A DNA stretch of 64,000 bases from Thermodesulfobacteriota bacterium (lineage in GTDB: Bacteria; Desulfobacterota; Desulfobacteria; Desulfobacterales; SURF-7): positions 1 to 64,000 of the forward strand of contig JBMORA010000022.1 of assembly GCA_049320885.1 (NCBI GenBank). Direction: 5' to 3'. A program made the translations under genes and the position numbers. Of this stretch, positions 1 through 22,074 are shown in pieces. The stretch's first letter is position 1. Every line of letters begins with the position of its first letter. The notes beneath the pieces are model-generated. The model did no database searches and was not told the origin of the DNA. It worked only from the letters and a program-made list of their open reading frames with translations.

Positions 1-121
1 TATAAAAGTAGAGCAATTTTGTAATAGCTATATTAAAATAGATAATTACAACTCATTGCCGCATCATATTGATATAGATAGTATAGTAAATCTAAGTAAT
101 ATACTAAAAAAAGGAAAATGA
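1..121 (+). CDS. 3' end of an AT-rich gene running in from outside the window (partial)
   Basis: Frame 2 is open from base 2 to TGA 119-121 (IKVEQFCNSY...NILKKGK*), ending 3 nt before the ATG at 125; not in the ORF track. Confidence 0.6.
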   Translation, partial: IKVEQFCNSYIKIDNYNSLPHHIDIDSIVNLSNILKKGK

Positions 122-124
122 AAC

Positions 125-3121
125 ATGTCGGTACTTCAGGCAAATTTCAAGGTGTTGGCAAATCAGATTTTTCATTTTGAGCCTTCTACAGAGAAGATTG
201 GTCCACTAGCTTATATAAAAAGTGAATGTTTTCATAAACACCGTATATCATTGCCTGAATTTAAAAATAGCTCGTACCCAAGATATGCTGAAGTGACTCT
301 AAAGGATTATCTTAGAAATGAGAAACAATTGGGACCATACGAGAGGCAGTTATTAAATGGAATATTATTAGATCCGGCCAAATTGATTTTAATAGCTGGA
401 GCTATAGGGAGTGGAAAAACATCTACGATTAAATATATAATTCATCATTATAGTATATTTAGAAAAAGAGTTGGTGTTTTGGATTTTAATAATCTGCAGT
501 TAGAACCTAAAAACCTTTTAGATAAATTATCGTACGAGGTAAGAATACTTAATCCGAGCTATATCTATTTAAACAATAATATTTTGGCTACAGATCTCGG
601 TGCGTTAGAAAGGCAAGGTATAGATAGGAAAGAAATGCGAATAAAATTGCAAGAGAATTTTTCCGATTCTATATATGAAAGTATAGTGGAGATGTTTCAA
701 CAAACCATAGATTATAAAAATACATTAAAAAATAAATCAAGAGCTACTTTGCTATTTAAATTTGCAAAGACGCCAAATGAACTTGTGTTTGATATTATAG
801 ATCTAATGCTACAGTTAGTATCGGGTAGTATACCGCTTGGTAACTGTATCAAAACTATTCCTTTTAGAAGCATACTCTCAAAAGTAAATGATGAAATATT
901 GCTAAATGGAGGGCTTAGAAAAGAAAATTTCAATTCTGATTTAGCACGAATTAAAAACGTAATTAATTCCAAATTGAGCCCGAGGGATAAAATCAAATTC
1001 TGGTTTTCCTTAATTGATATAATAGGGCAACTGCTCGATAATAAAAAGAATTACTTGTTTTGTATCGTTGATAATATCGATCCACTATCGGCATATCTAC
1101 AGCACGAACTTCATGATATTTTATTGAATATCGTTGAAAGGGCAACTTTTAAAATTGTTGTACCTGCGCGTTTTTCTACGTTTAAAATCTTAAATAAGGC
1201 TAGAGGGTATAACTGGTATCCTCATCATGGGCCTTCCCCAATCGAAGTAATTACTATTAGATTAGCGTATTTTATATCAACGCCAGAAGATTTTAGTGCA
1301 TACAAGACAATAGAGCAAAAAAATATTAAATCAATTTCTTTAATAAGAGCTTTTGATATATTGTTACGTATGCATCGTGGTTCGGGCGCTTTTAGATCTT
1401 TAAGCAGGATGATGGAAGCAATAGCAGGTGATAGCATTCGAAAAGCATATGATGCTATAAGAGAATTGTTTTTAGATGAGACATTAAAGTATTCATATTC
1501 AGAAATTGAATACTTAACCGATGAAGTTAATAAAATATTATCGAAATATTTATATCGATCTCTTATTGAAAAAATCGGTTATGTAATTGAAAAAGAGATG
1601 GTTGAAATTTCTCGTGAAGCCTATATCCCTGGAGTAGAAAGTCGAATAATAGATGAAAAAGCAAAAGAAAATTCTTGCAGATTAATGATGGTAATAACTT
1701 CTATTATTGATAATACATTTTCATCTGTAAAAAATATTACTATTAAAATATCAACAGAGGCTTTTAAAAAAATATTGAATATTGAGGAATCAGGTTATCA
1801 GGCAAAAACACGTATCCGGGCAGGTTGTTATACAGCATCAAAAATAGCTAAATCTCGTGGCTTATCGACAGAAATACTTAAAAAATTTACTGAAATTATG
1901 CGAAGTACGATTGAAATAGAGATGAAATCTGTTTTAAAGATGCAATATTCTAATTATTTTGGGATAAATGAAATAGAAGAATTTTCTGGCTTTATTTCAG
2001 CATCTTTAATAATTGAGGAAGAAAACATTGATAAAATATTTGAAGATCATGATTTCGATCCTGATAACATAGCCTTTAAGTGGTTTGATGAGTGGGATGA
2101 ATCAAAAATATGCAGAAAAATATTATCTGTAAATTCACCGTTAAACGCTGTTCGAGCTTTAATTAAGACAAGTGCCCATGATATTTTCCACAATTCTCTT
2201 GATGGTGAATTATGTTTATCAAAATTACGAATATTATATACCCTTGTTTATGATAGGGATCACAGCAAAACTGTACGGTTTTTTTTAGATGACCTTGAAA
2301 AATATTTTATACCCGAAGATAAAATATTACACGCAATTAATGATTTGATTAACTCCGAAACTAGAATTATATGGATAAACAAACAATTTGCGTATAAAGA
2401 TATCCAGGAACTGTATGAAGATGGAAACCTAAATGTTACATTAACTAGAAGGGGCTGGGGTTACTATAGTCAAGTATTAAAAGAACTAACATATTTGCAG
2501 GTTGTATTTATAGAAAGGAAAAGAACATCATCACAGCACTTCTCTTTTAGTGAAAGAGTTAATCTATGTCTTCTTGGTATTAGTGATCTTTATGAATTAG
2601 AAATAGAGAAAATTGAAAATAGAATAAAATTTTTAAATAAAAAAGGATATCAAAAAGAAAGAATAAAATCAGAAAGTCTTCCAATTGGGCTTATATCATT
2701 AGATATCGCAACAAGACTTGGGATAAATGTCGGTAAAACATTATTCCGCCACTTTCAAAATGTAATAAATAATCCAAGGCATAGCGATGCTGCAAGTCAA
2801 ATCGAAGAGCTTGAGGGTACCAGAAAAGCACTTTACAAATGGCTTATTTTTATTGAAACCGCTAAAGGAAAATTAAGCTCACTATATAGCGATCAATCTG
2901 GATTAAATCTTGATGAAGCTAATTATGCGTCTTTCTTATGGAAAGCAAGATATTTTGATCTTGTTGAAGAAAGGAATGTTGACTGGAATATAGAATATAT
3001 ACAAAGAGATAAGGTAATATCAGAAATAAAAAATATACTTAATGACCAAAAATTTTGGCACCCAGATTTATCAAAAGATGAATTCTCGCCAGAGGGTTCG
3101 GCGGTTGACCCCGTCATATGA
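125..3121 (+). CDS. Large P-loop NTPase (KAP/STAND/ORC-CDC6-like architecture), possible defence protein
   Basis: 998-aa ORF; Walker A GAIGSGKT, Walker B LFCIVDNID about 215 aa later, VVPARFSTF and AGDSIR motifs; strongly AT-rich. Confidence 0.75.
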   Translation: MSVLQANFKVLANQIFHFEPSTEKIGPLAYIKSECFHKHRISLPEFKNSSYPRYAEVTLKDYLRNEKQLGPYERQLLNGILLDPAKLILIAGAIGSGKTSTIKYIIHHYSIFRKRVGVLDFNNLQLEPKNLLDKLSYEVRILNPSYIYLNNNILATDLGALERQGIDRKEMRIKLQENFSDSIYESIVEMFQQTIDYKNTLKNKSRATLLFKFAKTPNELVFDIIDLMLQLVSGSIPLGNCIKTIPFRSILSKVNDEILLNGGLRKENFNSDLARIKNVINSKLSPRDKIKFWFSLIDIIGQLLDNKKNYLFCIVDNIDPLSAYLQHELHDILLNIVERATFKIVVPARFSTFKILNKARGYNWYPHHGPSPIEVITIRLAYFISTPEDFSAYKTIEQKNIKSISLIRAFDILLRMHRGSGAFRSLSRMMEAIAGDSIRKAYDAIRELFLDETLKYSYSEIEYLTDEVNKILSKYLYRSLIEKIGYVIEKEMVEISREAYIPGVESRIIDEKAKENSCRLMMVITSIIDNTFSSVKNITIKISTEAFKKILNIEESGYQAKTRIRAGCYTASKIAKSRGLSTEILKKFTEIMRSTIEIEMKSVLKMQYSNYFGINEIEEFSGFISASLIIEEENIDKIFEDHDFDPDNIAFKWFDEWDESKICRKILSVNSPLNAVRALIKTSAHDIFHNSLDGELCLSKLRILYTLVYDRDHSKTVRFFLDDLEKYFIPEDKILHAINDLINSETRIIWINKQFAYKDIQELYEDGNLNVTLTRRGWGYYSQVLKELTYLQVVFIERKRTSSQHFSFSERVNLCLLGISDLYELEIEKIENRIKFLNKKGYQKERIKSESLPIGLISLDIATRLGINVGKTLFRHFQNVINNPRHSDAASQIEELEGTRKALYKWLIFIETAKGKLSSLYSDQSGLNLDEANYASFLWKARYFDLVEERNVDWNIEYIQRDKVISEIKNILNDQKFWHPDLSKDEFSPEGSAVDPVI

Positions 3122-3448
3122 ACAACCTGAATACTCGGTTAAGCTATAAGTCGGTTTATCATTCGGGGGAACCATTCCCTCTTCGTTCTATCGTCGAAGC
3201 CGGGGCCGTGGGCAGGGGGTAAGCGTCAATTTAACCCCATCTATACTTCGGACCGCGAATTTGTCATGATCGATCCAAAAAATAAAAACAGAAAAACAGG
3301 GGACAGGCACAATATGCATAAAAAACTTGACGATCCACGTGCGTTGCGATATTCATGAAACGGAATGTTGATAGCTGGATTCCAAATGCTGAAGAAAAAC
3401 GCAAAAAAACAAGTTGATACCATAAGCCAATCAACAGGGAGGCAACTC

Positions 3449-4390
3449 ATGCCCAGAAGCGCACGCATTGTGATTCCGGATGAACCGGCGGTGTATCATG
3501 TGATGTCCCGGACGGCTCTTGCGGGATATCCGCTTGCGGATGTGGAAAAGGATTTCCTGATGGATCTGATCCGGCGCCTGGGCCGGGCGTATTTTGCCGA
3601 AGTGTTCGGCTTTTGCATCATGGGCAACCATTTCCATATGTTGGTGCGCATGTTTCCGGAGAAAACCGTTTCCGACGAGGAGGTCCGGAAACGCTATGAG
3701 CTTCTGTACGGCAAAGACAAGATCTGCCTGGACGGCCAGATTCCGTTCTTGAAACAGAAATGGACCAGCCTTTCGGAATTCTGCAAGGAACTCAAGCAGA
3801 CCTTTTCCCGCTTTTACAACAAACGCCACCAGCGACGGGGATTCTTCTGGGGCGAACGCTTCAAAAGCCTGATCGTGGAAAAAGGCGAAACCCTGATCAA
3901 CTGCCTGGCCTATATCGACCTCAATCCGGTGCGCGCCGGTCTGGTGGAAAGACCCGAACAATACCGCTGGAACTCCATCGGTTACCACGCCCAGCAGAAA
4001 AACAAGGGCGGTTTTCTTTCCCTGGATTTCGGCTTGAAAGAATTCGGCGTGCTGGACGCCGGGGAGCGCCTGCGGCTGTATCGCAAATTCATGTACGAAG
4101 CAGGAGCCATAAAGAAGGGTGAAGGTAGAAGGGTTAAGGGTGAAAGAAGGCAAGGGATTGGGGAGAAAACGGTGGAGAAGGAACGGAAGAAAGGCTTTCG
4201 GATCACCCGCGTGGACCGGTTCCGGTACCGCACCCGGTATTTTTCGGATTCCGGCATCATCGGCTCCAAGGAATTCGTGCGCCGGCAGTATGCGCTGATC
4301 AAGGAATTGTTCCAGTATGAAAGAGAAAAGCAGCCGAAACCCATATCGGGATTGAAGGGATTATATTCCTTGAAACGGCTGACGGAATGA
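3449..4390 (+). mobile_element. REP-associated tyrosine transposase (RAYT; IS200/Y1 HUH family), intact
   Basis: MPRxAR N-terminus, YHVMSR, HUH motif MGNHFHML, FWGERFKS, catalytic YIDLNPVRAGLV, YRWNS; RBS GGGAGG before ATG 3449. Confidence 0.9.
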
Positions 4391-4516
4391 TGAAATTCAT
4401 TCCGGCGCGGCAGCCTGCTCCCCGGAATCCTTTACAATAAATGGATACTTTACAATCCATATCCATGTTGATACACTTTTCGCTATTGACCATATTTCAC
4501 AATTCTGGAGTTTTTC

Positions 4517-4765
4517 ATGAAAGATAAAAAGCTGCTTGAGCGCATTGTGATGGACCCTAAAATCATGGTTGGGAAGCCTGTCATACGTGGAACAAGGTTG
4601 GCAGTGGATTTTATTCTAAATCTTTTGGCTCACGGGATGACTGAGGCTGATATATTATCTGAATATAAAGGGATTAAGCCAGAAGATATTCAGGCTTGTT
4701 TGCTTTTTGCAACGATGTCTCTTAAAAATACCGAGTTCATGCCGCTAATGGCGGAGCCGGGATGA
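4517..4765 (+). CDS. DUF433 family antitoxin
   Basis: RIVMDPKIMVGKPVIRGTRLAV...G.T..DIL.EY..I..EDIQACL signature; RBS GGAG. Confidence 0.85.
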   Translation: MKDKKLLERIVMDPKIMVGKPVIRGTRLAVDFILNLLAHGMTEADILSEYKGIKPEDIQACLLFATMSLKNTEFMPLMAEPG

Positions 4766-4869
4766 TGATCCTTCATGTTCTTTCCTGCCTGCTTGAGAGA
4801 TATTCGGAAAAGCTTCCAAACGCCTTTGTCGTGGCCACAGAAAAACAAGTCCGTTTTGCTCGAAAATAA
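4762..4869 (+). pseudogene. Internally deleted DUF5615-like (PIN-like) toxin
   Basis: ATG overlaps the DUF433 stop (ATGA); the 35-aa frame ends LLERYSEKLPNAFVVATEKQVRFARK*, resembling the C-terminus of DUF433 partner toxins; the N-terminal catalytic part is absent. Confidence 0.6.
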
Positions 4870-4899
4870 GGAACGAAAATCCTTGGATCAAACTACGCA

Positions 4900-5076
4900 G
4901 ACCGTTTCCGGTGTCGCACCCGGTATTTTTCGGATTCCGGCATCATCGGCTCCAAGGAATTCGTGCGCCGGCAGTTTGCTCTGATCAAGGAATTGTTCCA
5001 GTATGAAAGAGAAAAGCAGCCGAAACCCATATCGGGATTGAAGGGATTATATTCCTTGAAACGGCTTACGGAATGA
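4900..5076 (+). pseudogene. RAYT 3'-end fragment (copy 2)
   Basis: Near-identical to 4214-4390, ending at the same GGAATGA stop. Confidence 0.9.
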
Positions 5077-5099
5077 ACCGACCCGCCGGGTAACAAACT

Positions 5100-5489
5100 T
5101 CAACTCAGGATATCCACAAAACGGGACGCCTTGATTTCCGGATCGTTTATGATCAAGGGTAAGCCAAGATATCTTGCTGTTGCTGCAATGAGACGATCAT
5201 GGAGTTCGGGGATATCATCGATATCGCAGGCGGTTTTTAAGATCTCCAGACTCAACGGTTCAAACTGGTAGTTCCTGCTTTCCAGAAGGGTTTCGATGTG
5301 GAGCAATCCGATATCGATTCTGCTTTTCTCAAAAAGATAAATCACTTCCATCAATACGATCGCAGGAATGATGATAGTCGTTTCTCCCCGATCTGCGGAT
5401 AGATATGCTTGATGGGCTCTATTGTTGATTACTTTTTTGCCCATCATAAACTTTACCAGCGCTTGAGTGTCGGTGACAAAACTATCCAT
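5100..5489 (-). CDS. PIN-domain (VapC-like) toxin
   Basis: FVTDTQAL, IVLMEV, ELHDRLIAATA, PLIIND motifs. Confidence 0.85.
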   Translation of the reverse strand: MDSFVTDTQALVKFMMGKKVINNRAHQAYLSADRGETTIIIPAIVLMEVIYLFEKSRIDIGLLHIETLLESRNYQFEPLSLEILKTACDIDDIPELHDRLIAATARYLGLPLIINDPEIKASRFVDILS

Positions 5490-5730
5490 TGCCGAATTCC
5501 TGATCGACGTGTTCCCAAGTGTATCGCTTAAATTGCTTCAGGTCGGAAAAATCAATAGGCTGGTTCCTCAAAATGCCTTCAAGCTTAATTACTTTTTTTT
5601 CTGCCATATTCTTTTGATGCCGCATAACATCGATAAAATTTGCGATGGTATCTAATTCCTTCCCGGAAAAACCAACCAGTTTGTGATAGATTTCATGTTT
5701 TTTGATGGCTTCCTTGTTCATTTTTCGCAT
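5482..5730 (-). CDS. Putative antitoxin (DUF2281-like) of the PIN toxin
   Basis: Small ORF upstream of and overlapping the PIN gene; KLEGIL motif. Confidence 0.65.
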   Translation of the reverse strand: MRKMNKEAIKKHEIYHKLVGFSGKELDTIANFIDVMRHQKNMAEKKVIKLEGILRNQPIDFSDLKQFKRYTWEHVDQEFGNG

Positions 5731-5875
5731 CCTTTGTGTCTATTCTTCAAAAAGGGCGACTAAACCGTTGATCCGTTTTATCAAAAAAATGATCAGCGCC
5801 CTGTTTTTATAATTCTGTTAATCAAATTTATTATTCAATATAATAAAACCTTTCGGTTACGAGCTCAAGCAAAAA

Positions 5876-6513
5876 GAACAGAAATGGACCACCTGTCGGA
5901 ATTCTGCAAGGAACTCAAACAGACTTTTTCCCGGTTTTACAACAAACGCCACCAGCGCCGGGGATTCTTCTGGGGCGAGCGTTTCAAGAGCCTGATCGCG
6001 GAAAAAGGCGAGACCCTGATCAACTGTCTGGCCTATATCGACCTCAACCCGGTGCGCGCCGGTCTGGTGGAAAGACCCGAGCAATACCGCTGGAACTCCA
6101 TCGGTTATCACGCCCAGCAGAAAAACAAGGGCGCTTTTCTTTCCCTGGATTTCGGCCTGAAAGAATTCGGCGTGCTGGACGCCGGGGAGCGCCTGCGGCT
6201 GTACCGCAAATTCATGTACGAAGCTGGAGCCATAAAGAAGGGTGAAGATAGAAGGGTGAAGGGTGGAAAAAAGAAAGGAATCGGTGAGAACACGGTGGAG
6301 AAGGAGCGGAAGAAAGGCTTTCGGATCACCCGCGTGGACCGGTTCCGGTATCGCACCCGGTATTTTTCGGATTCCGGCATCATCGGTTCCAAGGAATTCG
6401 TGCGCCGGCAGTATGCGCTGATCAAGGAATTGTTCCAGTATGAAAGAGAAAAGCAGCCGAAACCCATATCGGGATTGAAGGGATTATATTCCTTGAAACG
6501 GCTGACGGAATGA
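5876..6513 (+). pseudogene. RAYT 3' two-thirds (copy 3), 5'-truncated
   Basis: Highly similar to about 3752-4390; lacks the HUH motif; a 1-nt deletion (GGACCAGCC to GGACCACC) puts ATG 5884 in frame. Confidence 0.9.
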
Positions 6514-6537
6514 ACCGACCCGCCGGGTAACAAACCT

Positions 6538-6637
6538 CAAGTCAAAATATCCACAAAACGGGATGCCTTCATTTCCGGATCGTTTGTGATCAAGGGTAGG
6601 TATAGGTATCTTGCTGTTGCCGCGATGAGACTATCAT
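6538..6637 (-). pseudogene. 3' remnant of a second PIN toxin paralogous to 5100-5489
   Basis: Translates DSLIAATARYLYLPLITNDPEMKASRFVDILT* versus DRLIAATARYLGLPLIINDPEIKASRFVDILS*. Confidence 0.85.
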
Positions 6638-6654
6638 TGAGGGGATACTCCAGC

Positions 6655-6969
6655 TCATGCGGCATTCACCGGTTGGATTTGCGCCAATTCTTTACTGTAA
6701 CGCTGTTCCAAATCCCACAGGTCCCAGGTATGTTGGGCATTCAGCCAGAATTGCGGTGAATTGCCAAATAAGCGAGACAATCTCAACGCCATCGCCGGGC
6801 TGACGGAGCGTCTTTCCCGTAAAATTTCATTAATTGTCTGGCGTGATACACCTAATGCGTTTGCCATGGAAGTCGTGTTCAGGTTATAGTCCGGCATGAA
6901 ATCTTCTCGCAGCATTTCACCGGGATGAGTCGGCCTGATTTCACGTTTTGCCGTATTGGGTATAGCCAT
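6655..6969 (-). CDS. higA: HigA family addiction-module antidote
   Basis: PTHPGEMLREDF...ALGVSRQTINEIL...SPAMALRLSRLFGNSPQFWLNAQ; start moved to ATG 6969. Confidence 0.9.
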   Translation of the reverse strand: MAIPNTAKREIRPTHPGEMLREDFMPDYNLNTTSMANALGVSRQTINEILRERRSVSPAMALRLSRLFGNSPQFWLNAQHTWDLWDLEQRYSKELAQIQPVNAA

Positions 6970-6979
6970 GGGTTTGTCC

Positions 6980-7056
6980 TCAATGATAATCGGTAATCTC
7001 AACATCGTAGGCATCGCCGTCGATGAAACGGAAACAGAAGCAAACGATTTTATCAT
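6980..7056 (-). pseudogene. higB: HigB toxin with a large internal frameshifting deletion
   Basis: MIKSFA start joined out of frame to CFRFIDGDAYDVEITDYH*, the typical HigB C-terminus, directly upstream of higA. Confidence 0.85.
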
Positions 7057-7062
7057 GAAGGC

Positions 7063-7091
7063 GCTGTAAACAATCACGTGACAGTTGTCAA
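7063..7091 (-). promoter_or_regulatory. sigma70 promoter of higBA (leaderless) with a palindromic operator
   Basis: TTGACA-17-TACAGC, 6 nt before the higB ATG; TCACGTGA palindrome in the spacer. Confidence 0.6.
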
Positions 7092-7097
7092 GTTGGT

Positions 7098-7225
7098 AAA
7101 AAACAGGACAGGCTGAATATGCACAAAATTTTTGATGATTCATATGCCGGATGAACCGGCGGTGTATCATGTGATGTCCCGGACGGTCGGATACCTTTTC
7201 TGAAACATAAATGAACCAGCCTCTC
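7098..7225 (+). pseudogene. Degenerate RAYT 5' remnant (copy 4) including its upstream end motif
   Basis: 7098-7142 resembles 3292-3337; 7147-7186 matches 3476-3515; 7181-7225 resembles 3730-3774. Confidence 0.8.
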
Positions 7226-7436
7226 CAGCGAGCAACATCATGCCCTCCCACAATCACGTTTCTTCAATTGTCTAAATGGATTGAGGGTGGATATCAATCA
7301 TAGCGCCCAAGCTGTCCCCATCCTATGAGGCATGGGAGGGATTGTTTCAAAATTACCTTGATATTATTACATCCATATCTTAAAATAAGTTATATAATAT
7401 TACAATATAGACGATTAATAGCTTCGGAGATATGAC

Positions 7437-8780
7437 ATGTTCTGGAGGAACATGAATGCATTCTTGTCTGAATGGAAAACCCGGAAGAACCGTAAGCCGT
7501 TGGTAATCAGGGGCGCCCGTCAGGTCGGGAAAACCTCCAGCGTTCATCGGTTCGGCAGAACGTCCTTTGAAACGTATATTTACATCAACCTTGAGTTAGA
7601 AGACCATGCCGGGCTCTTCAGCAAAATGCAACCTGTCACAGACCTGCTCCAAATCATTCAGTTGAAGTTCAATACCAAGGTCTCGCCCGGCACCACGCTC
7701 CTTTTCATTGACGAGGTGCAGAACTCAGCGATCGCCATGAACCAGCTTCGCTATTTCCACGAGGAAATACCGGAGCTTCACGTGGTTGCAGCTGGTTCCC
7801 TGCTTGAAGTCAAATTGAAGTCAGAGGGATTTGCTTTCCCGGTCGGCCGTGTAGAGTACTACTACCTTCACCCGGTAACGTTCGATGAGTTTCTTTCCGC
7901 CCAGGGAGAGGCAGAGGCATTGAGCTACCTGTCTTCGGTCAAGGCCGATACGCTCATCCCTGGGGAAATTCACGATATGATGCTGAAAAAGTTTCATACC
8001 TATCTCCTTGTGGGGGGCATGCCGGAAGCGGTCGCACGGTATGCGGAAACCAAGTCGTTCATCGATGTCGATCCGATATACGAATCAATCCTCACCGGTT
8101 TGCGGGACGATGTCTCCAAGTATGCAAGTGCGGCAAAGACAAAATACATCCAACATATCATCGAACATGCCTCGAAATATGTCGGTCAACAGATCAAATA
8201 TGAGCGGTTCGGGGGATCCAATTTCCGCAGCAGGGAGATGAGTGCGGCCTTTGATGTGTGCGGGAAGGCCATGCTCATCAGCCGGGTATTTGCGTCAAAG
8301 TCGAAACAGATGCCGCTGGTGGCTAATCTGAAAAAGTCCCCCAAGCTGGTGCATCTCGATGCCGGCCTGGTCAATTACCAGATCGGCATGCGAAGCGAGA
8401 TCGCCAGGATGGATGATATCAATGTCATCTATCATGGCCAGATTGCCGAGCAGATCGTTGGCCAGACCTTGTTGGCAATGAACACCGGCAGGCATGCGAA
8501 CTTGCATTATTGGTACCGGGAACAAAAGAGCGCTACATCAGAGGTGGATTATTTAATACCCATGAATAACCGCCTCATCCCTATAGAGGTCAAGTCCGGC
8601 AAGACCGGGACACTGCGCTCTCTGCTTAATTTCATGGATGAGAGCGGAAGCGAACTTGCCGTCAGGGTATACTCAGGGAATATGCAAACAGAAAAGATTA
8701 CCACGCCCGGCAAGAAAAAATTTATGCTCTTTTCCATGCCATTCTATCTGCTGTTCCGAATTCGGGGGCTTTTGGAATGA
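7437..8780 (+). CDS. AAA_14 ATPase with C-terminal DUF4143 (PD-(D/E)XK-like) domain
   Basis: GARQVGKT, LFIDEVQ, AAGS, GGMPE, PKL..LDAGL, EVDY...PIEVKSG; TTGATA-17-TAAAAT promoter at 7358-7386. Confidence 0.9.
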   Translation: MFWRNMNAFLSEWKTRKNRKPLVIRGARQVGKTSSVHRFGRTSFETYIYINLELEDHAGLFSKMQPVTDLLQIIQLKFNTKVSPGTTLLFIDEVQNSAIAMNQLRYFHEEIPELHVVAAGSLLEVKLKSEGFAFPVGRVEYYYLHPVTFDEFLSAQGEAEALSYLSSVKADTLIPGEIHDMMLKKFHTYLLVGGMPEAVARYAETKSFIDVDPIYESILTGLRDDVSKYASAAKTKYIQHIIEHASKYVGQQIKYERFGGSNFRSREMSAAFDVCGKAMLISRVFASKSKQMPLVANLKKSPKLVHLDAGLVNYQIGMRSEIARMDDINVIYHGQIAEQIVGQTLLAMNTGRHANLHYWYREQKSATSEVDYLIPMNNRLIPIEVKSGKTGTLRSLLNFMDESGSELAVRVYSGNMQTEKITTPGKKKFMLFSMPFYLLFRIRGLLE

Positions 8781-8841
8781 ATTTATTAAGGTAAGGTGCG
8801 GACCGGTTCCGATAGGATTGTGGAATGAGTCCTGATGGGTG

Positions 8842-8887
8842 TTGTTGTAATTGACAACAAAAAATGGTGTTGTTATTATAACCAACA
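8842..8887 (+). promoter_or_regulatory. sigma70 promoter (leaderless) overlapped by TGTTG..CAACA inverted repeats
   Basis: TTGACA 8851-8856, 17 nt, TATTAT 8874-8879, ATG 8887; TTGTTGT-aattg-ACAACAA inverted repeat plus a second TGTTG/CAACA pair. Confidence 0.65.
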
Positions 8888-9183
8888 TGAAAGTCGTTGA
8901 ACTAATTCGCCAACGTATTGTTTATGATGGAAACAAGTTCGCGGAGCTCATACTATGGCATCTTGAAAAGCCATTGGCGGCATCCCGGCACCCCTTCAAG
9001 TACCGCTTGGCGTACGTTGTTAACGGAATATGCGTTTTGCGGTACGACAACGAGGGAGGGAAAGGGGATCATCGACATTGGGGTGATAACGAAGCCGGTT
9101 ACAAATTTACTACCCCGCAAAAATTGTTGGCGGATTTCCAACACGATATTGAGAGGTGGAACCATGAAAACTGTGATTCTTGA
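8887..9183 (+). CDS. DUF6516 family putative toxin
   Basis: HPFKYRLAYV...VLRYDNEGGKGDHRH motif. Confidence 0.75.
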   Translation: MKVVELIRQRIVYDGNKFAELILWHLEKPLAASRHPFKYRLAYVVNGICVLRYDNEGGKGDHRHWGDNEAGYKFTTPQKLLADFQHDIERWNHENCDS

Positions 9184-9511
9184 TGTTCGTCCTCCCAAAG
9201 AGGCCATGGGTGACTTCAACCAGGCCTGGGAATCGAAAAAGCAGCAGAAGTCGGCGCGCATCAGTTTTGCATCGCCCGAGTTGCTGTGGAAAGTTCTGAC
9301 TGCAAAACGGTGGGAACTGTTGAAGGCGCTTTGCGGCGTCGGCCCGGTTTCTATTCGGGAAGCCGCGCGACGTGTAAAACGAGATGTCAAAGGTGTCCAT
9401 GGAGACGTCACGGCCCTTCTCAATGCCGGGCTGCTTGATCGTACGGAAAGCGGTGCCATCGAGTTCCCGTATGCTGCCGTAAAAGTCGAGTTTTTGTTGC
9501 AGGCTGCTTAA
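9164..9511 (+). CDS. HVO_A0114-like winged-HTH DNA-binding protein, putative antitoxin
   Basis: ISFAS.E.LWKVLT.KRWELL...GPVSIREAARRV.RDVK.VHGDV..L; overlaps the upstream gene; RBS GAGG. Confidence 0.75.
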   Translation: MKTVILDVRPPKEAMGDFNQAWESKKQQKSARISFASPELLWKVLTAKRWELLKALCGVGPVSIREAARRVKRDVKGVHGDVTALLNAGLLDRTESGAIEFPYAAVKVEFLLQAA

Positions 9512-9568
9512 TGAGATTACTATCATAACAAATGCAAAATAAAGAAACAGCTTCTGAAATCAATAATA

Positions 9569-10018
9569 ATGAAAAGATTTATTATTCTCATAGGGATGAT
9601 GATGCTGTTGATACTTGGGATTACAATTGAACCGGAAGCCCAAAAAGCGATTTCCGACGAATGGCGTCAAGATAGATGGTGTGGACAAAAACTTACCGAC
9701 TCAGTGCGTGCTGAAATTCCCGGATGTGAGGATGCATTTTGTGTTAATATTTCGGACTGTTCAAAAATATGCGCTTGCTTACTTTCATCGGATACTGGTG
9801 ATTCTCGGATTACATATACAAGGAGAGGGGAAGTCGTTCTGCATTGGAATACTATCATATACCCTCCTGCTATCGCTTCGGCATTAAGAGTTGATTCCGC
9901 CGATCTGAATGGTGATGGAAAAGAAGAATTAGTGATAGCCACGATGAGTTCCGCCGCAGGAAAAAATTGTTTTTCCTTGCGCCCTTCGCAGCTTGGCGTG
10001 AGCTCATCGGTCTGCTGA
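9569..10018 (+). CDS. Hypothetical exported protein, probably 3'-truncated
   Basis: Signal-peptide-like N-terminus; DLNGDGKEEL (FG-GAP-like) motif; the last about 20 codons read through a hairpin/repeat element. Confidence 0.5.
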   Translation: MKRFIILIGMMMLLILGITIEPEAQKAISDEWRQDRWCGQKLTDSVRAEIPGCEDAFCVNISDCSKICACLLSSDTGDSRITYTRRGEVVLHWNTIIYPPAIASALRVDSADLNGDGKEELVIATMSSAAGKNCFSLRPSQLGVSSSVC

Positions 10019-10043
10019 CAAAAGGCACCGGTTCCTTGCGCAG

Positions 10044-10457
10044 TCAGGAATACCAATTTTCCATTACCACGTCACGAAAAGCGGCAAAATCCTGAATATT
10101 CCGGGTGACCAATACCAGCGCGTTGGTTATGGAAATGGCGGCTATTTGACCGTCGATGAAAGATGGCGTCAGGCCTTGGGCGGTCAATTTCGCGCGCTCA
10201 GCGGCATGCCATTCAGCCGCCTTGCCATCATAGGGGAGAATCGGCAGATTGGGTTTGATGACATCGTTCAGAAACCTTTCAATGAACGCTTTTTTTCTGG
10301 AAGCGGGCAGTCGTTCGCACCCGAATTTCAGTTCATGCCATACCGGGGCAGCGATAGCGATGTCATGTTGATGCGTTTCCAGCAATTGCAATACGCGCTT
10401 GTCCGGTGAGGTCTTAATGGATTCCGAAATCACGTTCGTATCCAGTAGATATTTCAT
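10044..10457 (-). CDS. vapC: VapC family PIN toxin
   Basis: MKYLLDTNVISE, EL.FG, DGQIAAI, LVTRN..DF. Confidence 0.9.
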   Translation of the reverse strand: MKYLLDTNVISESIKTSPDKRVLQLLETHQHDIAIAAPVWHELKFGCERLPASRKKAFIERFLNDVIKPNLPILPYDGKAAEWHAAERAKLTAQGLTPSFIDGQIAAISITNALVLVTRNIQDFAAFRDVVMENWYS

Positions 10458-10744
10458 TCCAGAAAGGACTCCTTTCTTCCCCGGGTGTGGTCACGAAGGT
10501 TTTCGAAATCGGAATCCGATATGTCAAGGGGTTCCGTTGCCATGGTTTTGCGGAACTCCGAAAGTGTTTTCCAGAACCCTGTTTTGCGATTCTGCAGGTT
10601 TTCATATACTTGTATGGAAAGCAACACCGCCACCGGTTTTCCATGGCGGGTCAATTTCACCGGCATACCGGTTTCAACGTTATGGATAATGGCCGGGAGC
10701 CTGTTTTTCGCCTCGGCGATGGAAAATTCCTCCTTGATCGGCAT
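10454..10744 (-). CDS. Phd/YefM family antitoxin
   Basis: SIAEAKNRL..II..VE.G.PV.LTRHGKPVAVLLS; ATGA overlap with vapC. Confidence 0.9.
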   Translation of the reverse strand: MPIKEEFSIAEAKNRLPAIIHNVETGMPVKLTRHGKPVAVLLSIQVYENLQNRKTGFWKTLSEFRKTMATEPLDISDSDFENLRDHTRGRKESFLE

Positions 10745-10776
10745 GGTGCCTCCTTTGTGTTATAGGGGATGAGAAT

Positions 10777-10805
10777 ATTATGGCCATTATTGTGGCCATA
10801 ATCAA
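10777..10805 (-). promoter_or_regulatory. phd-vapC promoter with a perfect 10-bp inverted-repeat operator
   Basis: TTGATT-17-CATAAT on the minus strand; ATTATGGCCA-N6-TGGCCATAAT at 10777-10802. Confidence 0.7.
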
Positions 10806-11011
10806 CAAAAAAGAGAGTCCTTCGCGGTCAGCAGAAAAGCGGCCATTCCATTACGTACCGTTTGGTGTATATGGTTAATGGAAAATATGTCTCAGATTTT
10901 CTGAACGGCTCTGTAAAAAAAAAGGGGTGTCAACGCGATGTTGGCCCCCTCGGCTGGTTCAGTGAAGCCATTCAAGAAATGATCGGAAGCGCGATCGGAA
11001 CCGGCAGGTTG

Positions 11012-11350
11012 CTAACAGGCCACGTATCCGAAGTACTTCGCGAACATGCCAAAATAGTCACCGGTCACGATTTCGTATGGTAACAATTGGATGATTTTCC
11101 CGGTCAACGTGTTGTTGTCCTTGTTTTCGCATATGTTTTTAACACCCTTCGTATCTTCTGTTCCTTTCTGCATGGTACGGTTTTCCCCGGTTGACAGCAC
11201 CGGATCGTCACCGATCGATTCCACATAAGCGTCTTCCGGCGTATCCGCGGGAAGCGATTTTTCAGCAAGCGCTGAGTGAAATGCAACAAGAACGGACATC
11301 ATCATCGATACGATGGTGAGAACGGCGTAATGTCGCGTTATGATTTTCAT
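11012..11350 (-). CDS. Hypothetical exported protein (possibly truncated)
   Basis: RBS GGAGG, signal-peptide-like N-terminus; no recognisable domain. Confidence 0.45.
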   Translation of the reverse strand: MKIITRHYAVLTIVSMMMSVLVAFHSALAEKSLPADTPEDAYVESIGDDPVLSTGENRTMQKGTEDTKGVKNICENKDNNTLTGKIIQLLPYEIVTGDYFGMFAKYFGYVAC

Positions 11351-11625
11351 GTGTTATACCTCCAGTCTCCTCAACATTTCCCTTTGATGGAATGGATCAT
11401 TGCCGGGATCGGGAAAAACGCGAGGCGCGCCAGTATTATAAATAGGGCGCTTCGACCCATTGACACTCGCCACGGAATTGGATCAATCCCGAATCGACAA
11501 CACGATAAGTATTCTTACGATAAGCCTGGTTGTCAAGCGATGCATCTTTATATTGATTGAGGGATGGTTATGGTTTACATTGCAGATGAACTTTAAAATC
11601 ATCATGAAATTTTAAATATGTACTT

Positions 11626-12873
11626 ATGTTCTGGCGATATCTTGAAAAAGAAATAACCAGCTGGGAGAAAAAGCCGTACGTGCAGATTCTTTTCGGTGCG
11701 CGGCAGACCGGCAAATCCACTTTGCTGAAAAAGGTGTTGTCCGGGCCGGCCATGTGGATCGACCTGTCGGACCCGGGGGAGCGCAGCCGCTATCTGGCGC
11801 GGCCCGGGGACTTTATCGCGGAATGCAAGGCGTTGCCCAAAACCGGCACGCCTAGTCTGATTGTCATTGATGAAGCCCAGGCTGTCCCGGCTTTGTTTGG
11901 TGCGGTGCAGACCCTGTATGATGCGGACAAAACACGATGGCGGTTTGTTCTTTGCGGCAGTTCCGCCCGGAAGCTCCGCCTGACCGGAGCCAACCTGTTG
12001 CCCGGCAGGGCCGTGTATCAGCATCTCTATCCCCTGACTGTTGTTGAACGGCCATTTGGTGAAACGGACGCCGGCATCATGCATTCAGTCGAATTTCCCA
12101 CGCTGGCATCTGCCGGCCGCCCGTCCAAAGGACTTTTTCCGGCGGTTGCTTTGGAGAAACGGCTGGCGTTCGGCGAATTGCCGGGGATTGCGGTGGCTGC
12201 TGAAACAGACCGGGCGGCGCTGCTGAAATCATATGCCCTGATTTATCTGGAAGAAGAAATCCGGCGGGAGGGCTTGGTGAGGGATTGGGGCGCGTTCGTG
12301 CGGTTCCTTACCCTTGCAGCTGCCGAATCCGGAGGGATCATCAATTTTTCGGCGTTGTCCCGCGAATCCGGGGTATCCATGCCCACCATAAAATCCTATT
12401 ATCAGCTTTTGGAAGACATGTTTATCGGTTTTAAAGTCCCTGCATTTTCCAAAAGCCCCCGGAAATACCTGCTTTCCACTCCGAAATTTTTCTTCTTCGA
12501 CTTGGGGGTGCGTCATGCGGCCGCAGGCGTAAATCCCGGATATGAAATTATTAAGTCCCAGGCAGGAACCCTGTTTGAGCAATGGGTCGGCCAGGAACTA
12601 TGGAAAAGGCTCGGCTATTTGCAACAAGGCCGGCTTTTTCATTTCAGAACAAGAGGCGGCGCTGAAATCGATTTCATCATGGAAATGGAAGGCAACTACA
12701 TTCCCATTGGGGTCAAATGGACGGAACGCCCCGCCGGAACCAACGCCCGCCATCTCATTACCTTTATACAGGATATGGGCGATAAAGCATCCATGGGGTA
12801 CATTATATGCAGGTGCGCCAGACCCATGCAGATTCATGAGAATGTCATGGCCGTGCCCTACTGGTGCATATGA
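11626..12873 (+). CDS. AAA_14 ATPase with DUF4143 domain
   Basis: GARQTGKST, IVIDEAQ, CGSS, GELP, PKFFFFDLGV, AEIDF...IPIGVK. Confidence 0.9.
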   Translation: MFWRYLEKEITSWEKKPYVQILFGARQTGKSTLLKKVLSGPAMWIDLSDPGERSRYLARPGDFIAECKALPKTGTPSLIVIDEAQAVPALFGAVQTLYDADKTRWRFVLCGSSARKLRLTGANLLPGRAVYQHLYPLTVVERPFGETDAGIMHSVEFPTLASAGRPSKGLFPAVALEKRLAFGELPGIAVAAETDRAALLKSYALIYLEEEIRREGLVRDWGAFVRFLTLAAAESGGIINFSALSRESGVSMPTIKSYYQLLEDMFIGFKVPAFSKSPRKYLLSTPKFFFFDLGVRHAAAGVNPGYEIIKSQAGTLFEQWVGQELWKRLGYLQQGRLFHFRTRGGAEIDFIMEMEGNYIPIGVKWTERPAGTNARHLITFIQDMGDKASMGYIICRCARPMQIHENVMAVPYWCI

Positions 12874-22053: not shown

Positions 22054-22074
22054 CGGTGCACGGCATCGCTTAGA

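Follow-up and report, generated by a model that had tools for sequence, protein, structure and literature searches.

A head-to-tail array of TIRYT transposase copies and toxin-antitoxin genes in a Thermodesulfobacteriota genome

How does a transposase gene come to be followed, on the same strand, by three broken copies of itself with toxin-antitoxin (TA) genes in between? This arrangement lies near the left end of the stretch of DNA analyzed here (hereafter the window), the first 64,000 nucleotides of contig JBMORA010000022.1 from a Thermodesulfobacteriota bacterium. A preliminary description proposed a RAYT-anchored platform for gene accretion, functionally similar to an integron. On balance, we read the locus as a degenerate stack in which four copies of an IS-like element, the 'TIRtron', follow one another head to tail within a low-G+C TA/defence island.

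Four transposase copies in a gene island

Downstream of an intact Y1/HUH 'RAYT-like' gene (3449-4390) come three remnants (4870/4900-5076, 5877-6513 and 7099-7320), the first two truncated at the 5' end, so that four copies lie head to tail on the plus strand with TA genes between them. The features of the array and its surroundings are listed below.

125..3121, plus strand: open reading frame for a P-loop protein of 998 aa, within a block of 30% G+C; left-hand context outside the array
3294..3321, plus strand: left terminal repeat (TIR-L) of copy 1, core GGGGACAG at 3299-3306 (PWM score 32.7)
3449..4390, plus strand: copy 1, intact TIRYT (RAYT-like Y1/HUH transposase), 313 aa (Pfam Y1_Tnp, E 5e-9)
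4517..4765, plus strand: DUF433, antitoxin-like partner of DUF5615, intact (Pfam, E 5e-23)
4762..4869, plus strand: DUF5615 toxin-like remnant (blastn against L049, where a 108-aa DUF5615 is intact)
4870..5076, plus strand: copy 2, RAYT 3' remnant, about codons 239-313 (self-BLAST, alignments)
5100..5730, minus strand: PIN toxin (5100-5489; Pfam PIN, E 1.4e-10) and 82-aa upstream partner (5482-5730)
5877..6513, plus strand: copy 3, RAYT remnant covering codons 102-313 (gene nt 305 up to the stop), 95% identical to copy 1
6537..6665, minus strand: PIN remnant, C-terminal 42 aa, paralogue of 5100-5489 (Pfam PIN, 20.4 bits, below cut-off)
6655..7091, minus strand: intact HigA (6655-6969; TIGR02607, 106 bits), higB stub (6980-7056) and conserved promoter/operator (7074-7091)
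7099..7320, plus strand: copy 4, miniature TIRtron (PWM 18.9; blastn to L032, L030 and a C1 paralogue)
7437..12873, strand unassigned: further island cargo right of the array (Pfam/NCBIfam, PADLOC)

Self-BLAST and alignments confirmed the initial observation of one intact gene and three partial copies in the same orientation. Copy 1 matches copy 3 at 95.0% over 638 nt (3753-4390 and 5877-6513), copy 2 at 96.6% over 177 nt (4214-4390 and 4900-5076) and copy 4 at 97.7% over 43 nt (3473-3515 and 7144-7186). As had also been noted, the three copies that keep a 3' end (copies 1, 2 and 3) share the terminus ...ACGGAATGA at their stop and are each followed by TA genes, whose calls are backed by Pfam and NCBIfam. 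Between copy 1 and copies 2 and 3, divergence starts at the first base past the stop. Copies 2 and 3 match at 92.8% over 305 nt (4900-5204 and 6337-6641), and their homology therefore continues beyond the stop into the 3' end of the PIN gene; the 128 nt past the stop of copy 3 match the corresponding stretch after copy 2 at 87.5% identity.

Two of the remnants had to be redrawn. Copy 2, first placed at 4900-5076, keeps its end but really starts at about 4870, near codon 239, where it is joined to the end of DUF5615 at the microhomology AAGGAACG (junction read base by base). Position 4900 is an identity step, with 4900-5076 being 97% identical to copy 1 and 4870-4899 diverged, and marks the edge of a conversion tract. 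Copy 4, described as a partial RAYT at 7098-7225, is indeed a remnant but extends over 7099-7320 as a composite miniature with its own left and right repeats: a TIR-L with its core at 7105, codons from the N-terminus (7144-7186), a piece of the middle of the gene (7181-7226), the terminal part of the 3' flank (7251-7309) and the right repeat TIR-R CTGTCCCC (7312-7319). The flank and TIR-R can be aligned with those of L033, L030 and L046. This 220-bp miniature retains both terminal repeats and has lost more than 80% of its interior. A contig from run X4 lacks 7070-7249.

The PIN toxin and its 82-aa partner, which belongs to no Pfam or NCBIfam family, are convergent with copy 2 and form the sole apparently intact TA pair in the array. 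Of the reported DUF433/DUF5615-like pair, DUF433 is intact (83% nucleotide identity with contig C71 of congener G002), while the DUF5615-like frame carries a 246-nt internal deletion relative to its G002 homologue. Similarly, the PIN remnant and HigA described after copy 3 stand, but higB is a stub with a 205-nt internal deletion, as seen by alignment to the HigBA of G002:C71. The cargo-like modules noted further right (AAA-DUF4143, DUF6516/HTH, Phd/VapC) were recovered as two AAA_14-DUF4143 genes (PADLOC PDC-S01), TumE (formerly DUF6516) with an HVO_A0114 HTH, and PIN/Phd, together with an FG-GAP fragment. On the left, the 998-aa P-loop protein has no Pfam or NCBIfam family, no DNA match in congeners G001 or G002, and a weak PADLOC mad8 match (E 3.8e-5). 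The island, which holds the PDC-S01 defence candidates, has a G+C content of 30-53% over 1-13 kb, compared to about 57-60% for most of the window past 22 kb; tRNA genes lie at 22 kb.

Repeats of this kind could have been mis-joined in a short-read metagenome assembly. The assembly comprises 68 contigs, several of which terminate inside RAYT copies, and the last 126 nt of copies 1 and 3 are identical, so that the ordering of the cargo blocks depends on read pairs. However, Logan contigs from run X1 match 4361-4943, 5069-6078 and 6506-7176 exactly, linking unique segments to the repeats. Contigs from three other studies (X2, X3, X4) span the junctions at about 4870-4900, 5076, 5877 and 6513, bridging DUF5615 to copy 2, copy 2 to PIN, the antitoxin to copy 3, and copy 3 to the PIN remnant and HigA at 90-100% identity. 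The DUF5615-RAYT junction is also present in G002. The array is thus not peculiar to one assembly, and an artefact is hardly credible.

The TIRYT family and its terminal repeats

The accretion proposal started from a single-copy RAYT of the REP type, a premise that fails here, as the copy 1 gene is a TIRYT within a TIRtron. Its product contains the HUH motif as H61-F-H63 and a predicted catalytic Tyr motif, YIDLNP, at residue 155. It scores 61 bits against NCBIfam REP_Tyr_transpos, under the 80-bit cut-off, and its predicted structure (pLDDT 79) has TnpA-REP (4er8) as best fold match (E 1e-6). No REP-like repeats flank copy 1, and no flanking 16-mer occurs more than four times in the genome. 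TIR-L (3300) is instead found about 150 nt upstream of the gene, and its core fits the published TIR motif consensus GGGGWSAS (Di Nocera 2013). In copy 1 and in 19 of 24 full copies at other loci, a GGGACAG core is found 75-167 nt ahead of the ATG; this 7-mer occurs only 434+483 times in 5.6 Mb.

The TIRtron unit measures about 1.1-1.4 kb and consists of the left repeat GGGGACAGG... and the TIRYT gene, to which complete copies add a 3' flank of about 240-290 nt terminating in the right repeat ...CCTGTCCCC. We found the right repeat at +85 to +290 in L033, L046, L047, L014 and L059. It is recognizable in 4-5 of the 24 full copies, and most of them thus do not fit a two-ended cut-and-paste unit, which counts against reading the array as a stack of such elements. 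The family is little studied: our literature search returned descriptive papers alone and no experimental work on TIRYT activity.

The genome of the window has 23 family matches, four of them full length, at 14 loci or more, and congeners G001 and G002 have 37 and 16. Paralogues within the genome share 63-77% protein identity, with 97.7% for the best nucleotide pair; identical copies, circle junctions and excision joints, which would point to current activity, were not seen, a further point against the stack. Both congeners, a Desulfosudis oleivorans MAG and an anammox MAG also contain stacks in which copies and fragments share one strand. In G001, G002 and the D. oleivorans loci the pieces are interleaved with variable TA genes, and sister copies have variable neighbours, both in line with the accretion proposal. 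Ten full copies in the D. oleivorans MAG loci (80-94% nucleotide identity) have in common a unit that runs from about -153 and ends about 17 nt past the stop, containing the left TIR and the gene. These ten sisters share no cargo and no common sequence past +248.

Gene conversion and deletion within the array

Differences between the copies are unevenly distributed. Copies 1 and 3 differ at 2 positions in their last 207 nt versus 30 in the first 431 nt, and between copies 2 and 3 there are 6 differences in the 177 nt of RAYT sequence versus 16 in the 128 nt of PIN sequence. G002 has a fragment at the same DUF5615 junction; copy 2 matches it at only 76%, against 97% for copies 1 and 3, and the G002 fragment is closer to its own neighbour (86%). 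These alignments indicate that the last 200 nt or so of the array copies have been homogenised by gene conversion.

Deletions have eroded three of the four toxin genes (DUF5615, higB and one PIN, the last down to 42 codons) and three of the four transposase copies. The cargo is thus decaying, not being added. Fragment edges vary in position or coincide with microhomology. Nevertheless, 7 of 21 fragment starts are clustered at codons 238-264, compared to 1.8 expected. This counts against a stack and could reflect an enzyme site instead of chance decay.

Origin of the array

In four cases in other genomes, a resident copy breaks off precisely where the left repeat of the next copy has its outer edge, which argues that stacking is driven by the element. 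The anammox locus L038 contains the junctions A(1-238)/TIR-L-B and C(1-248)/TIR-L-D, copy(1-34)/TIR-L-copy is the junction at L032, and at L030 a 64-nt duplication begins at TIR-L. At L036, TIR-R is followed within 5-16 nt by a 5'-truncated copy, twice. We propose that the TIRtron would tend to land in or beside resident copies, giving rise to stacks. TA modules may lie between copies because one permissive island gathers elements of both kinds, and because a module that is costly to lose may persist between direct repeats whose recombination would otherwise remove it. Crossovers hidden in shared RAYT sequence would re-pair upstream and downstream neighbours, so that homology seems to stop at the stop codon. 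The cargo would then be a passenger of recombination, not captured by HUH chemistry.

Several observations instead speak for HUH-driven accretion, a sharper version of the preliminary proposal and a rather unlikely alternative, in which TIRYT uses the left repeat with a site at or just past the stop, or surrogate right ends downstream. In this scheme, 3'-adjacent DNA is co-mobilised or spliced in, and RAYT-plus-cargo units stack into a TA/defence cassette platform. Accretion of this kind accords with the scarcity of right repeats and with the homology unit that ends about 17 nt past the stop. In copy 1, in copies 2 and 3, and at L029 (there MazEF), the sequence turns foreign immediately at the stop, while L034, the sister locus of L029, keeps the usual flank. 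RAYT-3'-plus-cargo blocks also travel together: the RAYT-3'-PIN-3' segment occurs twice in the window, and the DUF433-DUF5615-RAYT' block is found beside different neighbours in G002:C71. PIN and Phd genes are enriched within 3 kb of RAYT pieces (3/23 vs 0.32 expected and 2/10 vs 0.14 expected), and TA genes are commoner 3' of the RAYT gene. These flank swaps, travelling blocks and enrichments all count against the stack. A clear TA/Fic gene lies within 1.5 kb of 10 of 34 annotated RAYT 3' ends (13 with HTH and NTase genes), by a hand count over loci that are not independent. Furthermore, the head-to-tail truncated tandems with left-repeat junctions resemble rolling-circle products, and the outermost repeats, TIR-L at 3300 and TIR-R at 7312, bracket the entire array. 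However, copy 4 owns a left repeat, so the repeat at 7312 need not be copy 1's, and the DUF5615-RAYT junction is a microhomology, not an element end. Shared blocks are 74-83% identical, a divergence similar to that of conserved genes in these genomes (69-80%), and the pattern of 3' identity is consistent with conversion. Accretion also fits poorly with the decaying toxins, the ten sisters without common cargo, and the anammox stack, which has no TA cargo between its copies. No recurrent attC-like site or motif bounds the cargo in the window, and the integron-like platform is thus not borne out; of the proposed accretion, recombination through RAYT homology is visible as gene conversion, and stacking by HUH cargo capture is rather unlikely.

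A passive history is distinctly unlikely. Here ordinary unequal crossing-over or replication slippage would have duplicated an ancestral RAYT-TA segment in tandem, decay would have followed, and the transposase, perhaps domesticated or inactive, would have had no part in forming the array. In its favour, the window directly displays no processes other than gene conversion and deletion, with one deletion junction at microhomology, and the divergence among paralogues shows that the copies are old. Random duplication, though, predicts neither the four junctions at left-repeat edges nor the two just past a right repeat, and a passive origin does not sit well with the two repeats kept by copy 4 or with a family spread over so many loci in this genome and more in G001. 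In a further, very improbable reading, a tyrosine recombinase inserts small integrative cassettes at the RAYT 3' end as their attachment site, each event leaving a duplicated 3' fragment, as at tRNA genes. The layout of full gene, cargo and 3' fragment of 58-75 codons does recur in the window, G002:C71, G002:C28 and G002:C68, and a XerD/integron-integrase-like gene lies directly upstream of the paralogue on contig C20. That gene falls below every NCBIfam cut-off on a 3-kb repeat contig of unplaced linkage, and no recombinase gene lies in or beside the array. Fragment starts also differ (codons 239, 242, 253, 255 and 263), and two are internal deletions that also keep the N-terminus.

Taken as a stack of TIRtrons, the array looks like a recombining, eroding pile-up of selfish elements in a gene island, not a purpose-built gene-collecting device. 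Its enzyme differs from the classical REP-associated RAYT, which is usually described as single-copy and acting on REP repeats, in being TIR-flanked, multi-copy in the genus and free of REP-like repeats. The TIRtron probably moves via a single-stranded intermediate, as in IS200/IS605, whereas accretion would liken TIRYT to IS91/ISCR and Helitron elements, in which read-through co-mobilises adjacent DNA.

Layout of the array and the island around it

Self-BLAST, repeat finding and alignments bore out the arrangement given in the preliminary description, in which one intact RAYT-like gene is followed by three remnants on the same strand. The copies are listed below with the genes behind them, whose order was taken from Pfam, NCBIfam and PADLOC.

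RAYT-like copies in the window and the genes that follow each of them
3449-4390, + strand: copy 1, the intact gene; then DUF433 and a DUF5615 remnant
4900-5076, + strand: copy 2, 96.6% match to 4214-4390; then a PIN gene and its 82-aa partner (minus strand)
5877-6513, + strand: copy 3, 95.0% match to 3753-4390; then a 42-codon PIN remnant, an intact HigA and a higB stub (all minus strand)
7144-7186, + strand: N-terminal piece of copy 4 (43 nt), 97.7% match to copy 1; then AAA_14-DUF4143 (PDC-S01), TumE with an HTH partner, PIN/Phd and a second AAA_14-DUF4143

The shared stop was likewise recovered, as all three copies that retain a 3' end terminate at ACGGAATGA. From the very first base past this stop, copy 1 no longer resembles the other two, and the likeness between copies 2 and 3 extends 128 nt beyond it, into the 3' end of the convergent PIN gene.

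The window forms the first 64 kb of a 137-kb contig in a 5.6-Mb assembly of 68 contigs. G+C content is 30% over 1-3000, 42–53% over 3–13 kb and roughly 57–60% in most of the window past 22 kb, and the low value of the array region relative to the rest of the window therefore places the array in a compositionally foreign island. An orthologue of the right flank (AraC/transglutaminase) occurs in the congener G001 with no array beside it; the left flank has no match in G001 or in the second congener, G002. A comparison of empty sites with loci of a D. oleivorans metagenome-assembled genome (MAG) was abandoned, as synteny there is rearranged and offers no clean empty sites. No known RNA family was found within 1–20 kb.

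Several other features mark this part of the genome. A tRNA-Glu and a tRNA-Lys (21976-22147) lie where G+C rises from 41–53% to ~60%, and the whole 1–22 kb stretch may be a mosaic island abutting tRNA genes. The 30% G+C block holds a 998-aa ORF (125-3121) with a Walker-A-like GAIGSGKTS near residue 95, which belongs to no Pfam or NCBIfam family, matches PADLOC mad8 weakly and has no DNA match in the two congeners; it may encode a foreign defence ATPase. The AAA_14-DUF4143 genes (7437-8780 and 11626-12873) match the PADLOC candidate defence family PDC-S01 with E-values of 1.6e-164 and 2.5e-67, and truncated DUF4143 genes also adjoin RAYT-like pieces on contigs C38 and C47 and at locus L029. The commonest 16-mers of the window's own genome occur 106 times and resemble a CRISPR repeat (TTCATCCCCGCGTGTGCGGGGAA), which probably reflects one or more large CRISPR arrays.

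The junctions of the array were compared with Logan contigs of four sequencing runs. Contigs of run X1, which may be the source sample, contain 94% of sampled words and match 4361-4943, 5069-6078 and 6506-7176 exactly. In three other studies, contigs span 4775-4934, 5020-5170, 5860-6009 and 7153-7303 (run X2) and 5662-5910 (run X3), or cover 6420-7069 joined to 7250-7322 (run X4). The individual junctions are therefore real, and an assembly artefact, which might be suspected from the identity of copies 1 and 3 over their last 126 nt, is scarcely credible. Because of that identity, the order of the cargo blocks rests on read pairs.

A Y1 transposase gene with terminal inverted repeats

The predicted product of copy 1 has H61-F-H63 as its HUH motif and, at residue 155, the tyrosine motif YIDLNP (Y155), and matches Pfam Y1_Tnp with 36.7 bits against a cut-off of 23. 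A structure model built on 23 homologues (pLDDT 79) has E. coli TnpA-REP 4er8 as its best fold match (Foldseek E 1e-6, TM 0.74 on target), followed by the TnpA proteins of IS608 and ISDra2 (E ~1e-4); solved structures searched by sequence with the family profile gave no match. Copy 1 thus has the HUH motif, the single tyrosine on the following helix and the IS200-like fold that define the Y1 HUH superfamily (PF01797). A TTGAC box conserved in the alignment of sister copies may belong to a sigma-70-like promoter upstream of copy 1; a consensus scan there did not list it.

Assignment to the classical RAYTs was rejected. The NCBIfam equivalog NF047646 scores 61.4 bits, below its cut-off of 80, and is matched at profile positions 66-145 only. 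No inverted REP pairs flank copy 1, and the commonest flanking 16-mer, found four times genome-wide, is itself RAYT coding sequence, so that the link to REPINs fails as well. Nor does the single-copy habit that the preliminary description attributed to RAYTs hold here: the window's genome has 23 matches, of which four are full length (63–77% protein identity), and several of its contigs end within such copies. There are 37 matches in G001 and 16 in G002, and 26 of the 41 genomes searched have at least one at E<=1e-10.

The ends of the element could be recognised only by comparing sister copies, as generic repeat finding around copy 1 returned short, chance-level inverted pairs. Ten full copies in the D. 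oleivorans MAG (80–94% nucleotide identity) share a unit that starts sharply ~153 nt before the ATG and ends at the stop plus ~17 conserved bases. Its left edge reads AAAAT-GGGGACAGG-N4-ATATG, and the core of this left terminal inverted repeat (TIR-L), GGGGACAG, lies at 3299-3306 in the window, ~150 nt upstream of copy 1. Of 24 full copies at other loci, 19 have the core GGGACAG, which the window has at 3300, 75–167 nt ahead of the gene; the 7-mer has just 434+483 occurrences in 5.6 Mb. A right repeat (TIR-R), the complement of the TIR-L core, follows 85–290 nt downstream in a minority of copies (loci L033, L046, L047, L014 and L059), and the window has one at 7312-7319. A position weight matrix (PWM) for the repeat gave 22 matches scoring >=14 in 5.6 Mb, with almost no solo TIRs. 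Four of the 22 lie at copies of the gene (the two best at 31–33, two more at 18.9–19.5), and one further match reaches 21.

For copy 1, no right repeat could be recognised; the one candidate, a degenerate CTGCTCCCC at 4411-4419, scores <7 with the PWM and was discarded. Hairpins at nt 766-790 and across the stop fold modestly in copy 1 and are not conserved in sister copies, and the TIR-L region folds weakly (-1.7 kcal/mol). A TIRtron is defined as a RAYT-like gene flanked by TIRs, many of which share GGGGWSAS, and the family fits this definition. The element thus belongs to the TIRYT/TIRtron kind, TIRYT being the transposase gene and TIRtron the unit with both repeats, and to the Y1 HUH superfamily, and does not belong to the REP-type RAYTs, the IS200/IS605 elements or the integrons.

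Copy 4 is a 220-bp miniature TIRtron with both ends. Its TIR-L core at 7105 (PWM 18.9) is followed by N-terminal codons, an internal piece that matches gene nt 281-326 of the paralogue on contig C1, and 59 nt whose homologue is the terminal part of the 3' flank in the MAG copies. Its TIR-R, CTGTCCCC at 7312-7319, is in register with those of loci L033, L030 and L046. An X4 contig from a related strain lacks 7070-7249, a 180-nt skip from 7069 to 7250 at which 10 nt fit either side, and precise excision was rejected as its explanation. As to current mobility, no joints at repeat boundaries were found in the X1 contigs.

Stacking, recombination and the neighbouring toxin-antitoxin genes

Same-strand stacks recur in other genomes. 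Mapped by tblastn and Pfam scans, locus L032 of the D. oleivorans MAG runs from a copy(1-34) through a full copy, HepT, BrnA, a second full copy, a fragment and BrnT to an internally deleted copy, DUF3368/UPF0175 and more fragments. In G002, contig C12 has the order copy, Phd/ParE, PIN, copy, and contig C28 has a truncated copy, TIR-R, a miniature and a further TIR-R. At locus L036, a TIR-R is followed within 5–16 nt by a 5'-truncated copy, twice. Locus L038, from a Candidatus Anammoxibacter MAG, holds four copies in a row with no toxin-antitoxin (TA) genes between them. Here codon 238 is the last one left of copy A and codon 248 the last of copy C, and both breaks coincide exactly with the A-rich outer border of the TIR-L that belongs to the following copy. 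A similar TIR-L junction follows codon 34 in L032, and a 64-nt duplication at L030 starts at TIR-L. These four junctions at the exact element end, spread over two phyla, argue that the stacking was done by the element. It may have proceeded by insertion into or beside a resident copy, or by end-initiated duplication or deletion. Purely passive duplication and decay, as the source of the whole arrangement, seems to us quite improbable.

Fragment starts cluster in codons 238-264, with 7 of 21 against 1.8 expected (binomial P 0.0014), in a tally that leaves out eleven contig-end fragments, and counts copy 2 and its G002 twin as one event. The cluster may mark a self-target of the enzyme; it may equally mark a deletion-prone K/E-rich linker, and short remnants are in any case the likeliest to persist and be noticed. 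Fragments that seemed to start at 'codon 256' had pointed to precise cleavage at gene nt 766, a reading that was rejected: several of these fragments lie at contig ends and are assembly breaks, base-level alignment places the starts at codons 239-263, and the step at nt 766 in copy 2 is the edge of a conversion tract. X4 contigs from a subsurface metagenome (3942->4211 and 6051->6368) carry RAYT variants with internal deletions whose right edges, at gene nt ~763-797, fall in the region of the cluster; the sides of the joints are 24–45 nt long, with low support. At locus L016 (contig C50 of the window's genome, 5539-7874), a TIRYT copy with stop codons and an internal deletion (codons 155-262) lies directly downstream of an XhoI-type restriction-modification pair.

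The 3' ends of the copies have a history of their own. Compared pairwise over the last 177 nt, copy 2 shares 97% identity with copies 1 and 3 and just 76% with the fragment that occupies the corresponding DUF5615 junction in G002. This G002 fragment, on contig C71, is closest to its own neighbouring full copy (86%), and a fragment on G002 contig C28 shows the same pattern (85% to its neighbour). The exception is a fragment on G002 contig C68, which is closest to the copy C12b of that genome (97%) and 93% identical to the copy at its own contig's end. Upstream of 4900, the similarity of copy 2 to copy 1 falls abruptly to a weak level, and its likeness to the G002 block is kept. Between copies 1 and 3 there are 30 differences over the first 431 aligned bases and 2 over the final 207; between copies 2 and 3, the RAYT part has 6 differences over 177 positions and the PIN part 16 over 128. 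Since the MAG paralogues have no extra conservation at the 3' end, selection is an unlikely cause of this likeness. The pattern of gene conversion indicates that recombination keeps the 3' ends alike across the array, and thereby supports the second half of the earlier proposal, recombination through RAYT homology. Crossovers inside the shared sequence leave no trace and its edges alone are visible, so the repeats seem to end at a common point.

Deletion has also shaped the remnants. The block comprising promoter, DUF433, DUF5615 and RAYT 3' end, which includes copy 2, is found in G002 on contig C71 with 80–83% identity and with different neighbours on both sides. DUF5615 is whole there, and the window's version lacks 246 nt; the join of its stop to RAYT codon ~239 sits at a shared motif, AAGGAACG. 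HigBA is common to the window and the same G002 contig (74% identity), the window's higB having lost 205 nt with the operator and HigA retained. Orthology of the window's island with C71 was nevertheless rejected, as the TA and RAYT modules match but the flanks do not. Three of the window's four toxins are deleted or truncated while their antitoxins persist, which is a signature of decay and not of recent gain.

TA genes are over-represented near TIRYT pieces in the window's genome: of the 23 PIN matches, 3 are no more than 3 kb away where 0.32 would be expected (P 0.004), as are 2 of the 10 Phd matches (0.14 expected, P 0.009), at loci that are few and not independent. By our own tally over three genome sets, a clear TA or Fic gene stands within 1.5 kb of 10 of 34 annotated 3' ends, or 13 of 34 if HTH-antitoxin-like and NTase genes are counted. 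Nine solo copies in the MAG have mostly housekeeping genes upstream; downstream, three have PIN+YoeB, MazEF or NTase and six have nothing similar.

On balance we favour, as somewhat probable, an IS-like TIRtron pile-up in a TA/defence island that was reshaped by recombination and deletion. An IS-like TIRtron family would have spread in the lineage with a tendency to pile up head to tail, and the array in the window would be one of these piles. By homologous recombination the copies would homogenise their 3' ends and re-sort the DNA between and behind them, and internal deletions, one of which has a short shared motif at its joint, would erode transposase copies and toxins alike. The excess of TA genes between copies may simply reflect the co-location of island residents, and modules that punish their own loss might also resist deletion between direct repeats. 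TA cassettes in chromosomal integrons offer an analogy for such loss-resistant modules.

We consider it unlikely that the enzyme itself captured and stacked 3' DNA by HUH activity. The duplication of a RAYT-3'+PIN block within the window and the presence of the DUF433 block in G002 would fit such capture, as would locus L029, where a 914-nt MazEF module begins at the first base past the stop and the sister locus L034 has 87 nt of the usual flank left ahead of the desaturase gene common to both. However, ten sister copies share no sequence past +248, no recurrent site bounds the cargo, and the shared blocks are 74–83% identical, about as diverged as conserved genes between the genomes (69–80%); the decay of three of four toxins also speaks against capture. 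A bolder variant, quite unlikely in our view, is that an active TIRYT cuts at TIR-L, at a second site at or near its own stop and perhaps also in linker codons 238-264, and stacks or splices 3' DNA as a recombinase-free, attC-free platform for shuffling TA and defence genes. Attachment sites served by a tyrosine recombinase are very improbable. An integrase-like gene does adjoin a paralogue on the 3-kb repeat contig C20: at locus L014 (G000:C20:60-932, in the window's own genome), a XerD/integron-integrase-like recombinase, below all NCBIfam cut-offs, lies directly upstream of the TIRtron paralogue. The 127-nt ends of C20 overlap the ends of at least eight other contigs, which makes it a repeat node in the assembly graph.

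Loci L029 and L034 also represent a synteny break with an element at both edges. L029 9041-12912 and L034 10001-12008 are contiguous in the window's genome (contig C9:69-5826) and lie on different long contigs in the MAG, where each block abuts a TIRYT copy and then the same desaturase gene (92–96% identical, one with a 287-nt deletion).

Whether RAYT-like enzymes still move DNA is a long-standing question, and this genus offers natural substrates for it: an intact enzyme gene, a 220-bp miniature with both repeats, exact TIR-L junctions and a possible self-target in the linker. The locus also presents a repeated gene as portable homology that homogenises itself and re-sorts neighbouring TA/defence modules, and some of the mosaicism of such islands may have arisen in this way. 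Should the bolder reading prove true, TIRtron arrays would shuffle these modules both inside a genome and from one genome to another, so that integrons would be joined by an HUH-based means of shuffling cassettes.

Relation to known mobile systems

Classical RAYTs, typically vertically inherited genes with one copy per genome and REP/REPIN flanks that recur in great number across it, resemble the element in their catalytic motifs and supply its best structural match (TnpA-REP 4er8), but here there is no REP/REPIN family, the gene is not single-copy and it scores below the NCBIfam equivalog cut-off. A tie between REPtrons and TA genes is on record, as hicAB replaces a REPtron locus in 24 E. coli strains, nearly all of clade B1, according to the main text of that study (PMC3333891).

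By motifs and length (NHFH, YIDLNP, ~94 residues from HUH to Tyr, 313 aa), the enzyme resembles subclasses 2.1/2.3 of TnpA-Y1 (Quentin et al. 2018, PMC6006769), which equal Bertels group 1 (PMC5581495). The main text of the former describes NH[YF]H, Y[IV]xLNP, a beta3-alphaC insertion, a long C-terminal tail and no REP, and gives subclass 2.3 a mean of 3.9 copies at 75% identity; in that of the latter, group 1 has the second-highest duplicate rate among RAYT groups. Likewise, no REPs were found here and there are several moderately diverged copies per genome. In contrast to those main-text descriptions, the W motif of copy 1 is W-G, not W-E/Q, its tail has no Bac_DnaA_C or HTH Pfam match, and the host belongs to Desulfobacterota, subclass 2.3 being named from Chromatiales/Alteromonadales. 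In the passages compared (PMC6006769, PMC5581495), there is no mention of arrays or TA neighbours.

With IS200/IS605 elements the family shares the Y1 HUH fold and a multi-copy habit with partial copies, and by this analogy TIRYTs probably move through single-stranded DNA. The ends, however, are inverted repeats and not subterminal hairpins, there is no tnpB, and the copies are 6–37% diverged (63–94% identity; best pair 97.7%) instead of near-identical; no target tetranucleotide was found, just an A-rich run before TIR-L. IS91/ISCR and Helitrons are similar in possible mechanism only, namely in head-to-tail tandems that include truncated members, in far ends that are weak or absent, and in flanking DNA that in some cases moves together with the gene. 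Their enzymes are Y2 or Rep-helicase proteins with ori/ter ends. Capture of the IS91/ISCR type would place one transposase+flank unit at unrelated sites, its origin end fixed and its far ends variable; we see two co-travelling blocks and a post-stop indel, and ten sister copies without shared cargo.

Integrons likewise hold small TA-rich modules in a same-orientation series beside one enzyme gene. Here, by contrast, there is no IntI, attI or attC, PIN/antitoxin and HigBA lie on the opposite strand, and modules are bounded by gene fragments, not sites; no recombinase was found within 1–14 kb, and there are no recurrent non-RAYT repeats.

The closest relatives are the published TIRtrons, with their Y1/HUH gene, a left repeat ~150 nt upstream and, in complete copies, its complement 85–290 nt downstream. 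A literature search on TIRYT/TIRtron returned descriptive papers only and no experimental study. In the main text of Di Nocera et al. 2013 (PMC3733652), TIRtrons have a RAYT-like gene with TIRs sharing GGGGWSAS instead of REPs, and TIRYTs occur at one to three genes per genome together with families of solo TIRs. Compared with that account, a genome here carries numerous diverged copies, which form stacks on one strand that include truncated and miniature members; the right repeat is absent from most copies, there are almost no solo TIRs, and TA modules stand between copies. Judged on the main-text parts of these papers, whose supplementary tables may list copy numbers of related taxa, what seems new is the genus-wide expansion, the head-to-tail stacks with repeat junctions, the miniature derivative, the concerted evolution of array members and their interleaving with TA genes.
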